Positions 31,617 through 35,675 of a stretch of DNA of 64,000 nt are shown piece by piece (within the stretch, counting starts at the first letter, position 1; each line of letters starts with the position of its first letter). The notes under the pieces are model-generated. The model was given only the letters and a program-made list of their open reading frames with translations. It was not told where the DNA came from and did no database searches. The stretch comes from Bdellovibrionota bacterium (GTDB lineage: Bacteria > Bdellovibrionota_C > UBA2361 > OMII01). The translations under genes and the position numbers were made by a program. Location: contig JBILFA010000002.1 of NCBI GenBank assembly GCA_044351795.1, forward strand, positions 13,838-77,837, in the 5' to 3' direction.

Positions 31617-32993
31617 ATGCAAATAAATCCGGTAATCTTTCGAGAGTACGATATTCGTGGAACGGTCGGTACAGAGCTCAGCCCAGAGTTTGCAAGGGTC
31701 CTCGGTAGAGCTTACGCGACGCTGGCTGTGGAGCACAAACTCAACCGTATCGCTATCGGGCATGACTGCCGACTGAGCTCTCCGGACTACGCTCAATCAC
31801 TCGCCGAAGGTATGGCAGACGAGGGAATCGACGTGGTACTGACCGGCATGGGGCCGACTCCCCAATTGTATTACGCAGTATTTGCAAATGACCTCGGTGG
31901 TGGCATTCAAGTTACCGGAAGCCACAATCCTCCTGACATGAACGGCTTCAAAATCCTGTTGGGAAAGCAGACCCTCTCCGGCTCTGATATTCAGGACATG
32001 AAGAACCGCTGCGAGCGCGTGCTATCAAAAGCCCCGGTATCGAAGCGTGGCGTGATCACGAACCTCGAAGTACGTGAGTCGTACATCCAGAACCTCATAG
32101 AGAATTCCCGCTCTCACATGGGCCCCCGAAAACTCAAGGTAGTCGTAGATGCGGGCAATGGGGTCGGCGGCATGGTCGGTCCGGCCGTGCTCAGAGAGCT
32201 CGGCGTCGAGGTAATCGAGTTGTACTGCGAGCCGGACGGACTTTTTCCGAATCATCATCCAGACCCGACAGAGCTCAAGAACATCACCGACCTCGTTGCC
32301 GCCGTCAAAGAGCACGGTGCTGATTTCGGAATCGGTTGGGACGGAGATGCCGACCGCATCGGAGTAGTCGATGAAAAAGGAGCTCCGATCTTCGGAGACA
32401 TGTTGCTCCTCATCTACGGCAGAGCAATCTTGAACGAGAAGCCGGGAGCGACTATCATAGGTGACGTCAAATGCTCGAGCCTGCTCTTTGACGATCTCGC
32501 TGCACGCGGCGCAAATGCGATAATGTGGAAGACCGGGCATTCCTTAATCAAGGGCAAGCTCAAAGAGACTCATGGAGATCTCGCCGGAGAGATGAGCGGT
32601 CACATCTTCTTCAAGCATCGCTACTACGGTTTCGATGATGCCCTGTATGCCTCAAGTAGGTTGGTGGAGATTGTCAGCAAACACTCTGGGCCGATCTCCT
32701 CACTTCTTTCGGGATTGCCGCCTATGGTATCCACCCCGGAGCTCCGTGTGGACTGCCCGGAGCAGATTAAATTTAGGATCGCACAGGAGGCGCAGTCAGC
32801 ATTCAAAGAGTTCAAGGTTGATACGATTGACGGTGTGCGAGTTACCTTCCCGCAGGGCTGGGGACTGGTGCGCGCGTCGAATACTCAACCCGTTCTCGTG
32901 ATGCGCTTTGAAGCGGAAACCCCTGAACTCCTCGAAAGCTACAAGAGGACCGTCCTCGATCGGATTGAGGATATCAAATCTCGCCTTTCGTAG
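31617..32993 (+). CDS. Phosphomannomutase/phosphoglucomutase (alpha-D-phosphohexomutase family)
   Basis: FREYDIRG; active-site loop TGSHNPPDMNGFK; metal loop GIGWDGDADRIGVVD; GEMSGH. The Shine-Dalgarno is AAGGAG. Confidence 0.9.
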   Translation: MQINPVIFREYDIRGTVGTELSPEFARVLGRAYATLAVEHKLNRIAIGHDCRLSSPDYAQSLAEGMADEGIDVVLTGMGPTPQLYYAVFANDLGGGIQVTGSHNPPDMNGFKILLGKQTLSGSDIQDMKNRCERVLSKAPVSKRGVITNLEVRESYIQNLIENSRSHMGPRKLKVVVDAGNGVGGMVGPAVLRELGVEVIELYCEPDGLFPNHHPDPTELKNITDLVAAVKEHGADFGIGWDGDADRIGVVDEKGAPIFGDMLLLIYGRAILNEKPGATIIGDVKCSSLLFDDLAARGANAIMWKTGHSLIKGKLKETHGDLAGEMSGHIFFKHRYYGFDDALYASSRLVEIVSKHSGPISSLLSGLPPMVSTPELRVDCPEQIKFRIAQEAQSAFKEFKVDTIDGVRVTFPQGWGLVRASNTQPVLVMRFEAETPELLESYKRTVLDRIEDIKSRLS

Positions 32994-33003
32994 CCGATCT
33001 GAG

Positions 33004-33031
33004 AGCGTGGTCAATGCCGTTTGACCACGCT
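33004..33031 (+). terminator. 11-bp perfect hairpin right after the phosphohexomutase gene
   Basis: AGCGTGGTCAA-tgccgt-TTGACCACGCT begins 11 nt after the stop. It is followed by CCATCTCTTC, a poor U-run. Confidence 0.5.
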
Positions 33032-33051
33032 CCATCTCTTCACTATCCAGC

Positions 33052-35154
33052 ATGAAGGAGCACCACCAGACGACGATCTCAATCTCAGTCTTCTCTGCGC
33101 GACTCTTCTATGCCGACTCGCCCGACACTTCGCTCGAAACCGGCGTCCTTCATCACACGACACAAATACCAAGCAAGGGAATGATGAAGGTGTGCGTTTC
33201 CGCAGACGCCCCTGGATCGCTACTATGGATGGATGGACTGGCCATTCAAGCGAGCCGCACGCGATCCTTTGTAGAAGCACTGCGGCGAGGCGAGATCCCA
33301 AAGCCGATCGCTCAGCCCGGCTCTCTTCCTGCTCATATGCGCGTTCGGTATGTATCGCCAGGCACCATCGCTCTGTCCGACGAGACGCTCATCTCTATGC
33401 TCGGGCTAGTCCCTACCCTACTCCATACTATCGATTCCTCCGGCTATCGCACGTGTGACAGTTGCGGAAGCGCCGTGAGAATGTACAAAACCGCGGCGAA
33501 TCTTGCGGAGGAGATCCTGGAAGGACATAGGAATCAAGGTATCGAGATCCAGCTTCGTGCCTCGCCTGATCTCCTCACCCAGTGGGGAGAGACGCGAGGA
33601 TTCCGTCTTCAGGAATCAGGTAATGGATACTGCTTCATCGAGCTCGACTCCTTGGTTGCCAAGCCTGAGGCTTTTGAACGAGTTCGTAAGGTTCTCGACT
33701 CAAGCTGGTCACTTCCCACCGGCAGCGTGTGGTGTCTAAGCGATGATTCGACAACCGCATATGCTCCCTCTGGTTTCTGTATGCAGTGCCTAAGACCGGC
33801 ATCAGCGATTTCTATTCAGAGGCTTACTCACATCTTGCGGAAAGGAGCTGCTGACCCCCAGGCGCCCGAACTTCTGCTCAATGCATGTGGAACAACCGTT
33901 GCAGGGCTTTTGAGCTCATCGCTGTCAGTACTCGAAGAAAAGTTACTTACCGGCAAGATCTTGTCCCCCGCTCTTCGGGAGGAGCTGTGGGCTTTGAATC
34001 TCGAAGGTCTTCTCTTAGGCAGAACCGCTGATAGGCTCTCAGCGTCAGCACTGGCGCGTCTTGCCGTCATTACGGCAGCACTGGACGGCTCAGATGACGA
34101 CACGCTCGTTGTTGTGGATGTGCCGTGTGGTTTGATGTCGCCGAGCAAAAGCTCCAGTGCTGAGCGCATTCTACAGCACTCGGCGCGGCGTCGCACGACG
34201 GTCGTGCTGGAGCAACACAGCGGAGAGTTCCAATCAAGCACGGAAACTCGAACACCGCTCGGTACGGGTGTGAGTTTGGGTACCCTTCGCCTGAGAACGC
34301 CCCTGGAGTCCACATGGAAGGAAACGGATCTAGTCCAGGGATCACTCCACGTCATCCGCCCGCTCGAAACCCACTCGACCGAACCTCTCGCCGCAGACAT
34401 ATTCGCCGCTCTATCGGGGAAAGGAGCTCTCGACCAGCACGAAGCAGAGTACACCACTCGGCACTCTTGTGACGCTCACTTGGTCGACATGCGCCCTATC
34501 ACATCGTTGAACAGACGGATCTTGGCCCAACAGTTCGGCCTGTATGAACCTCTCACTAAACTCTATGCGTCCGCATTGGAAGCACGCATGCTGGGACTCA
34601 CTCCGAAGGATTTCAATCTGAGTAGTCGCGCTAAGCCGAATTACCTGTGTCCGAAATGCTCAGGTTTGGGAATAGTTCTCGAATCAGTACCGGGCTTCGA
34701 GCGTCCCCAGGCGCGCCCATGCCTCATCTGCCTCGGCACGAGATTTCGAACCCCGATCAAGGAGATTGAATTTCGAGGTCGCGCGTTGTGGCAGCTCTTG
34801 AATTCGACGTTTTCGGAGGCGGAGAGCGTTCTTCGTGCTCTTCCAAGAGTTGCGAACTCACTATCTCTTCTCAAACTGCTTGAACTTGATCACCTTCCCG
34901 TCGGTATGCCTGCCTGTTTGTTGAGTTTCTCCGAGCGCAAGCTAACAGCGATCGGTACCAGTATCCTTTCGGGAACAAAGTCTCGTCCGACCGTTCTCAT
35001 TATCGAAGAACCGTTTGCCGGTCTTTCCGAGAGGCAGGCAGCAGGATTGACCCAACTCATAACCAACCACGAGCTCGGTAAGGACGTGACTTGGCTCTTG
35101 GTTGGTCGAGATGCCCGCTTGGCCAAAGTCAGTTCCTCGACGCTCGAGGTTTAG
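33052..35154 (+). CDS. UvrA-like protein with both ABC ATPase sites degenerate (UvrA-fold relic, 700 aa)
   Basis: Collinear with UvrA. Cys pairs are retained (CDSC...CMQC; CPKC...CLIC). The C-terminus CPKCSGLGIVLES...PCLICLGTRFRTPIKEIEFRGRALWQLLNSTFSEAESVL...LLSFSERKL...PTVLIIEEPFAGL aligns to CEACQGDGVIKVE...[22 protein letters not shown]...LSGGEAQRV...LYILDEPTTGL. Both Walker A sites are lost (SADAPGSLL; PLETHSTEPL). NBD-I has signature LSASA and Walker B VVVDVP. Confidence 0.7.
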   Translation: MKEHHQTTISISVFSARLFYADSPDTSLETGVLHHTTQIPSKGMMKVCVSADAPGSLLWMDGLAIQASRTRSFVEALRRGEIPKPIAQPGSLPAHMRVRYVSPGTIALSDETLISMLGLVPTLLHTIDSSGYRTCDSCGSAVRMYKTAANLAEEILEGHRNQGIEIQLRASPDLLTQWGETRGFRLQESGNGYCFIELDSLVAKPEAFERVRKVLDSSWSLPTGSVWCLSDDSTTAYAPSGFCMQCLRPASAISIQRLTHILRKGAADPQAPELLLNACGTTVAGLLSSSLSVLEEKLLTGKILSPALREELWALNLEGLLLGRTADRLSASALARLAVITAALDGSDDDTLVVVDVPCGLMSPSKSSSAERILQHSARRRTTVVLEQHSGEFQSSTETRTPLGTGVSLGTLRLRTPLESTWKETDLVQGSLHVIRPLETHSTEPLAADIFAALSGKGALDQHEAEYTTRHSCDAHLVDMRPITSLNRRILAQQFGLYEPLTKLYASALEARMLGLTPKDFNLSSRAKPNYLCPKCSGLGIVLESVPGFERPQARPCLICLGTRFRTPIKEIEFRGRALWQLLNSTFSEAESVLRALPRVANSLSLLKLLELDHLPVGMPACLLSFSERKLTAIGTSILSGTKSRPTVLIIEEPFAGLSERQAAGLTQLITNHELGKDVTWLLVGRDARLAKVSSSTLEV

Positions 35155-35342: not shown

Positions 35343-35675
35343 ATGGCGCGGCTTTCCCGAGACAAGCGTTCCCAGAAAGGTGAGGCGGAGATGATGCTAT
35401 TCGGTATCGTCGTCATCCTCTGCGGCATACTCTCAGGCTCTTTGTGGGTCTTAAACTGGGTAAAAGACAGCAAGAACGCAAAGGTACAAGAGCACATGAA
35501 TGCCCGTTTTAAGCGAGGCACACCAGCTCCTGTCACAATCTCAAAAGACCCGGCCGCCTACTACGCGAATTGCCGGAAGTCTCCAGTTTCACTCATCAGC
35601 ACCACCATCAAGTGCCAAGTCATGGATGAATCCTACGGCGAGCTGTACCTTACGCCGTTCGAAACGATAGAGTAG
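35343..35675 (+). CDS. Small single-pass membrane protein (110 aa), hypothetical
   Basis: The ATG at 35343 follows GAGG at 6 nt. There is one TM segment (MMLFGIVVILCGILSGSLWVLNWV). The 5-prime part of the track ORF overlaps the upstream gene and was trimmed. Confidence 0.45.
   Translation: MARLSRDKRSQKGEAEMMLFGIVVILCGILSGSLWVLNWVKDSKNAKVQEHMNARFKRGTPAPVTISKDPAAYYANCRKSPVSLISTTIKCQVMDESYGELYLTPFETIE

Follow-up and report, generated by a model that had tools for sequence, protein, structure and literature searches.

In every form studied, UvrA ties damage search, proofreading and the hand-off to UvrB to ATP at two sites. Most of its DNA contacts are made by signature domain II together with the insertion domain, and the Zn3 hairpin provides damage-specific contacts (PMC7835731); class II UvrA proteins have no UvrB-binding domain and keep the insertion domain (PMC10192343). 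The stretch analysed here, called the window, comprises 64,000 nucleotides from a Bdellovibrionota bacterium (assembly GCA_044351795.1, contig JBILFA010000002.1, positions 13,838 to 77,837) and carries a gene for a 700-residue UvrA paralogue on its plus strand. We hold with high confidence that this protein has the UvrA fold with dead nucleotide sites, that it has lost domains of UvrA while keeping zinc modules, a UvrB-binding fold and the Zn3 module, and that it is a selected, family-restricted paralogue standing beside UvrABC. A literature survey on dead or degenerate UvrA paralogues and on UvrA in Bdellovibrio found no description of an ATPase-dead UvrA paralogue; the protein is an undescribed variant of the UvrA family, a pseudo-ATPase restricted to one bacterial family.

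33052..35154, plus strand: ATPase-dead UvrA paralogue P0001, 700 aa (open frame, hhalign, AF2, Foldseek, VIA-align)

The gene product is a full-length UvrA-fold protein whose domains are collinear with those of UvrA from end to end. As a single sequence it matches TIGR00630 over residues 478-669 only (E 1.5e-17; 63.2 bits against a curated cut-off of 729.8) and fails as a whole protein the equivalog score test of that class I UvrA model; UvrA chains of the PDB are matched over the same C-terminal stretch at about E 1e-15, and plain HMMER sees UvrA only in the C-terminal third. The family alignment used here (A2) holds 50 members at 23-58% identity, over which all motif columns, invariance and charge counts given below were read. 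A profile built from these members reaches the UvrA chains at 6e-35, with further collinear pieces across the N-terminal half, and hhalign against canonical UvrAs gives 99.7% at E 2e-26. A global hhalign alignment anchored on E. coli UvrA (100%, E 9.3e-45) pairs residues 17-700 with E. coli 1-904 over 662 columns. The AlphaFold (AF2) model computed from A2 is confident (predicted local distance difference test (pLDDT) 91, predicted template modelling score (pTM) 0.89). Its top Foldseek ranks are occupied by UvrA chains only (3pih_A, 9.6e-26; 2r6f_A, TMq 0.64), VIA-align superposes it on UvrA chains with Z from 21.6 to 17.6 and up to 658 of the 700 residues aligned (3uwx_A, the UvrA of a UvrA-UvrB complex), and UvrA models of the ESM Atlas match at TM 0.71-0.77. 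None of this is visible to Pfam, in which neither the window protein nor any of the 50 members matches a UvrA or ATP-binding cassette (ABC) family, including PF00005 (ABC_tran); the ABC fold is present by structure comparison despite the missing PF00005 match.

Both nucleotide sites are degenerate. The canonical ABC set (Walker A, LSGGE, the Asp-Glu of Walker B and the H-loop His) is replaced at both sites, in the window protein as in the 50 members, and the positions concerned are the following.

33199..33228, plus strand: degenerate Walker A I, SADAPGSLLW, residues 50-59 (E. coli-anchored alignment)
34036..34050, plus strand: degenerate signature I, LSASA, residues 329-333, paired with LSGGE
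34108..34125, plus strand: degenerate Walker B I, VVVDVP, residues 353-358, with LDEP paired with VDVP (355-358)
34360..34386, plus strand: degenerate Walker A II, PLETHSTEP, residues 437-445, paired with GVSGSGKST
34921..34935, plus strand: degenerate signature II, LSFSE, residues 624-628, paired with LSGGE
34999..35013, plus strand: degenerate Walker B II, IIEEP, residues 650-654, paired with ILDEP, with Asp changed to Glu
35095..35112, plus strand: H-loop position, LLVGRD, residues 682-687, with IEHN paired with VGRD and His changed to Arg

At site I the GLSGSGKS of E. coli UvrA pairs with VSADAPGS, which sets the E. coli K37 opposite G55, and Walker B retains D356 and P358 with the catalytic Glu gone (DE to DV). 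At site II the E. coli K646 stands opposite T443, in a stretch that is hypervariable and carries insertions and deletions across the family. A P-loop of the pattern [AG]xxxxGK[ST], sought at the homologous positions of both sites, occurs in 0/50 members; the motifs that the members do share read LSxxxLA, hhhD-h-P, LSxSE(R)R and hhhE-x-P.

Beyond the ATP sites, the protein has lost the insertion domain, with 0-1 residues placed opposite E. coli 290-400, and one N-terminal zinc module, which leaves two Cys pairs in the N-terminal part. Eight Cys are invariant in 50/50 members (C135, C138, C243, C246, C533, C536, C557 and C560), indicating two four-Cys zinc modules, as against three in UvrA. The retained modules are laid out as follows.

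33454..33465, plus strand: first Cys pair, C135-x2-C138, the first pair of Zn1, aligned to the CPxCG pair of UvrA
33466..33777, plus strand: inserted domain with UvrB/Mfd-binding fold, residues 139-242 (domain model and Foldseek)
33778..33789, plus strand: second Cys pair, C243-x2-C246, closing the inserted domain, invariant in the 50 members
34492..34911, plus strand: signature domain II with the Zn3 module, residues 481-620, the sole part for which plain HMMER gives a UvrA match
34648-34731, plus strand: Zn3 pairs C533/C536 and C557/C560, invariant in the 50 members

The second Cys pair is ambiguous, since HMMER equates it with the second pair of Zn1 and hhalign with the first pair of Zn2; by topology, C243/C246 close the inserted domain as Zn1 does. 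The region so bracketed is 116 residues long, compared with 141 in E. coli. Folded alone, residues 130-250 reach a pLDDT of 94, and the top Foldseek match is UvrA's UvrB-binding domain (2r6f_A, TMq 0.62, root-mean-square deviation 3.3), with a TM of about 0.5 both ways against 4dfc_D and 3fpn_A; the matches to UvrB-binding domains carry modest E values (4e-3 to 0.1) at a probability of 0.97-1.0. In the Zn3 module G538 and R564 are invariant, G540 and G562 are kept in 49/50 members, and the spacing is x20, compared with x19 in E. coli. A preliminary description, made from the letters and translations of this DNA, had listed the motif replacements one by one and considered the insertion domain missing, and the E. 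coli-anchored alignment agrees with it on every replacement and on the absent domain. The Cys pairs that it named are likewise present, with the first of them lying at C135/C138, ten residues from the "about aa 145" given for it.

The paralogue is restricted to one family and is inherited vertically. Full-length matches (>480 bits) were found in 33/35 genomes of one GTDB family of uncultured Bdellovibrionota, the two genomes lacking one being 83-84% complete, and in 0/56 genomes drawn from a further 20 families of the order; a pattern scan of genome contigs with a 10-sequence alignment returned two loci only. The GC content of the gene is that of its flanks. For a pair of orthologues at 80% identity (dS 0.35), the ratio of nonsynonymous to synonymous substitution rates (dN/dS) is 0.31, compared with 0.045 for the neighbouring glmM and 0.097 for a SurA-like gene, and the proportion of nonsynonymous differences (pN) is 0.10 against a synonymous proportion (pS) of 0.28 over 693 codons, a difference of about eight standard errors by our own arithmetic. 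Taken together, a dN/dS of 0.31 and a pN below pS point to selection that is purifying, but relaxed. Across loci glmM is 80-91% identical where the UvrA-like protein is about 27-56% identical. Lost catalytic residues, a conserved fold and purifying selection, the three marks of a pseudoenzyme, thus coincide in this protein.

These results, together with those on the fold, also bear on the wider claims of the preliminary description. Its reading of the 700-residue frame as collinear with UvrA is borne out by hhalign and by the Foldseek and VIA-align comparisons, and the checks it proposed turned out positively: the UvrA profile match is significant, the structural model superposes on UvrA with Z up to 21.6, a canonical-type uvrA lies elsewhere in the genome (see below), and orthologues are full length in nearly all genomes of the family with the dN/dS just given. 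It had named the lack of a UvrA profile match, canonical residues in a proper alignment and disrupted orthologues as outcomes that would speak against it; what was found is a profile match, an alignment with the motifs replaced, and intact orthologues under selection.

The genome that carries the paralogue also encodes UvrB, UvrC and a fused double UvrA (L023:668-6094:-; G000 contig C63:14751-20036 (-)) with four intact Walker A motifs, which measures 1808 aa from its first start codon in an open frame of 1826 aa. A further frame of 1249 aa with a UvrB-like module is probably Mfd. The fused double UvrA resembles the Chlamydia-type UvrA (NCBIfam NF001885), and fused-type frames of about 1650-1940 aa occur throughout the order. 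Short UvrA relatives occur in the order as well. Both Walker A motifs are present in L026 and L030, only the second in L024, L025, L029 and L032, and neither in L027, L028 and L031. One of these short paralogues, L032, was seen alongside the dead one in G010, which belongs to the same genus as the window. Myxococcota, Pseudomonadota and Thermodesulfobacteriota contribute Atlas clusters of comparable short UvrA-like proteins.

In a quick maximum-likelihood tree the window family forms one clade on a long stem (98% support in the Shimodaira-Hasegawa-like approximate likelihood ratio test (SH-aLRT), length 1.05), apart from the canonical UvrAs and from either half of the fused UvrA. L031 is a possible sister of the window family, with the deeper relations unsure because of long branches. 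As to a parent half within the fused UvrA, both halves score alike and the fork in the tree does not resolve. The scattered positions of L027, L028 and L031 in the tree hint that ATP sites were lost independently, which we do not claim in view of the long branches and the quick tree search.

The flanks of the gene keep a conserved order, in which the following genes stand on either side of it.

31617..32993, plus strand: glmM (phosphoglucosamine mutase; Pfam PGM_PMM I-IV), upstream in 13/13 loci
35343..35675, plus strand: 110-aa protein with a single transmembrane segment, downstream in 11/13 loci at 40-77% identity

The 110-aa protein has its one transmembrane helix at the N-terminal end and two Cys towards the C-terminal end; neither Pfam nor PADLOC gave a match for it. 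SurA-like, OmpA-like and lipoprotein genes lie upstream. For the UvrA-like protein, the PADLOC defence models gave two marginal matches only (E 1e-3 and 7e-3) and no qualifying stretch, and a scan for consensus promoters and terminators found no more sites than in shuffled sequence. A structured element separates glmM from the UvrA-like gene.

33000..33034, plus strand: conserved stem-loop separating the glmM stop from the start codon (folding and comparison of loci)

Its stem is a perfect 12 bp (-24.3 kcal/mol, z -5.2). The same stem-loop recurs with compensatory base changes just after the glmM stop in four loci of the close subclade (L010, L011, L035 and L036), and at least two more distant loci (L014 and L018) have a different strong hairpin in the same place; altogether, nine loci have a strong hairpin that stands out, and in each of them it lies after the glmM stop. 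The stem-loop may act as an attenuator between the two cistrons or govern RNA stability, or it may be a palindrome to which a protein binds.

The likely translation start is the ATG at 33052, upstream of the start in the public record. The public gene call (P0002) is 656 aa long and begins at M45 (33184), adjoining an AAGGGA stretch. The ATG at 33052 is favoured because residues 1-44 are conserved among orthologues (motif QTTIxLSVFSARRFY), form a confident first beta-strand in the AF2 model and directly follow the conserved hairpin, and the 656-aa call is probably truncated. The upstream ATG has no obvious Shine-Dalgarno sequence, and its context, ATCAGCATG, is common to the orthologues. Members of the family appear in public records mostly as "hypothetical protein", a few as "transporter ATPase" subunits, and fragments as "excinuclease UvrABC ATPase subunit".

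As for function, the overall best explanation is that the protein is an ATP-independent, zinc-stabilised scaffold for DNA binding or docking, a role that sequence and model make probable. The preliminary description had likewise favoured a repurposed scaffold independent of ATP. Such a protein would work without ATP, would bind DNA statically via signature domain II and the Zn3 hairpin with no ATP-driven proofreading or release, and would offer a partner a UvrB/Mfd-binding-type docking domain. Static DNA binding is proposed because the signature II/Zn3 surface is the most constrained of the protein, is the only one that is consistently basic, and contacts DNA in UvrA. Residues 481-620 are the best-conserved region (2.35 bits per column, compared with 1.3-2.0 elsewhere), have the lowest dN/dS of all regions (0.19), and carry a net charge of +1 to +11 (median +6), which makes them the sole region that is basic in every member. 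The DNA-binding arginines of E. coli UvrA are R712, R722, R724 and R730 (PMC3025350). R512 lies opposite the E. coli R722 and is R/K in 48/50 members; K519, near R730, is K/R in 45/50; K503, near R712, is conserved in 29/50; and R724 has no counterpart. In addition, the invariant R564 is joined by R575, which is R/K in 50/50. DNA binding by the protein may well occur, with a chance that we put slightly short of even.

Several observations weigh against a DNA-binding or docking scaffold. Of the four E. coli DNA-binding arginines, one alone is matched exactly by a basic residue. The insertion domain, which makes many DNA contacts in UvrA, is absent here, and its deletion abolished DNA binding in Ecm16 (PMC10192343). 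On the docking side, the UvrB-contact residues R216 and E222 of E. coli correspond to R210 and D216 (D/E216), which are kept in the close subclade of the window only; family-wide, an Arg occupies the counterpart of R216 in 24/50 members, and at the counterpart of E222 most members have R or H. The UvrB-binding-domain-like segment of the preliminary description therefore stands as a fold, with UvrA domains as its top Foldseek matches, and does not extend to family-wide contact residues. The dN/dS is about seven times that of glmM, an in-frame TAA in one genome and a frame split in two in another (G072, G015) may interrupt the gene, and the occurrence of disrupted frames in a few genomes indicates that the constraint is modest. 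Conserved neighbours such as glmM and a small membrane protein give no hint of a role on DNA, and no LexA-type box was found near the gene with two consensus patterns.

Some of these points fit the main alternative, in which the protein serves chiefly to bind other proteins, as a decoy or adaptor that engages UvrB, Mfd or the fused UvrA. It would adjust excision repair through its UvrB/Mfd-binding-fold domain or through UvrA-type dimer surfaces, itself binding DNA little or not at all. That domain (dN/dS 0.195) is as constrained as the Zn3 region, the counterparts of R216/E222 (R210, D/E216) are kept in the window's subclade, UvrB and the 1249-aa probable Mfd are available in the genome as partners, and the DNA-contacting insertion domain is the part that was lost. 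We nevertheless consider this reading unlikely, for the R216/E222 counterparts are not conserved across the family and it is the DNA-facing signature II/Zn3 region that is best conserved and basic. A role away from DNA, such as one in the cell envelope, would use the UvrA fold as a rigid zinc scaffold that acts in concert with glmM and the small membrane protein downstream. The conserved order glmM, UvrA-like gene and 110-aa single-transmembrane protein agrees with it, as do the SurA-like, OmpA-like and lipoprotein genes upstream; all loci with this synteny belong to one bacterial family, however, and may simply have inherited the order, a strong hairpin lies between glmM and the gene in the nine loci that have a prominent one, and no feature of the protein points to binding of membranes or sugars, all of which renders an envelope role quite improbable.

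That the protein is still an NTPase using a non-canonical nucleotide site is very improbable: it does retain the ABC core fold, D356 as the Asp of Walker B at site I, and the acidic E652 and E653 at site II, but both P-loop regions are hypervariable with insertions and deletions and offer no Lys or Gly-rich loop in 50/50 members, and the signatures, the catalytic Glu of site I and the H-loop His are lost as well. A decaying pseudogene, or a relic awaiting its stops, might explain the fast evolution relative to glmM and the few disrupted or split frames, but is scarcely credible, being contradicted by the dN/dS of 0.31 with pN 0.10 against pS 0.28 over 693 codons, by full length in 33/35 genomes down to about 25% identity with 16 invariant columns that include all eight Cys, and by the confident AF2 model obtained from the family alignment.

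Returning to the zinc-stabilised scaffold, a more specific role is possible, if doubtful: the protein would read the shape of DNA or damage to it without ATP, or serve as a decoy for UvrB/Mfd docking, so as to modulate excision repair beside the fused UvrA, and would stand at the end of a site-loss series, in which insertion-domain-less relatives of UvrA would have lost first one and then both ATP sites. If this is true, the series would offer natural variants that separate the roles of the proximal and distal sites. A conserved relative that has no ATP sites but retains the signature II/Zn3 surface and the UvrB-binding fold is a counter-example to the ATP dependence of UvrA and shows that the scaffold alone is selectably useful, and the relatives in this order with two, one and no intact sites could help to dissect the contribution of each. 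A family that is invisible to Pfam and mislabelled in public records can now be annotated correctly.

Proteins of the same architecture are found within the order itself. The second half of the fused UvrA keeps the UvrB-binding segment and lacks the insertion domain, like the window protein, and the short insertion-domain-less UvrA relatives (660-850 aa) have the same architecture. The difference lies in the ATP sites: the fused UvrA, L026 and L030 retain all of their Walker A motifs (GxxGxGKS/T), whereas the window protein retains none, and Pfam recognises L026 (ABC_tran, UvrA_inter) and the fused UvrA (additionally UvrA_DNA-bind) but not the window protein. With class I UvrA (TIGR00630; 2R6F, 3PIH, 3UWX, 9GXK) the protein shares the collinear domain order and tandem ABC fold, a UvrB-binding-fold domain flanked by Zn1-type Cys pairs, signature domain II, and a Zn3 module bearing CxxCxGxG and CxxCxGxR. 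It differs from class I in that its two ATP sites are dead, neither the insertion domain nor Zn2 is present, the UvrB-binding-fold region is shorter by about 25 residues and the N-terminal part of the second nucleotide-binding domain by about 35, and the UvrB-contact residues are not conserved family-wide. Class II UvrA proteins (D. radiodurans UvrA2, Ecm16 and DrrC) are likewise shortened, coexist with canonical UvrA and act outside classical excision repair, and the core of the window protein superposes on two of their structures (2VF7 and 7SH1) with VIA-align Z of 21.6 and 18.6. Class II UvrA reportedly needs its ATPase for function. The window protein presents the opposite of the class II architecture, with the UvrB-binding fold kept, the insertion domain lost and the nucleotide sites dead.

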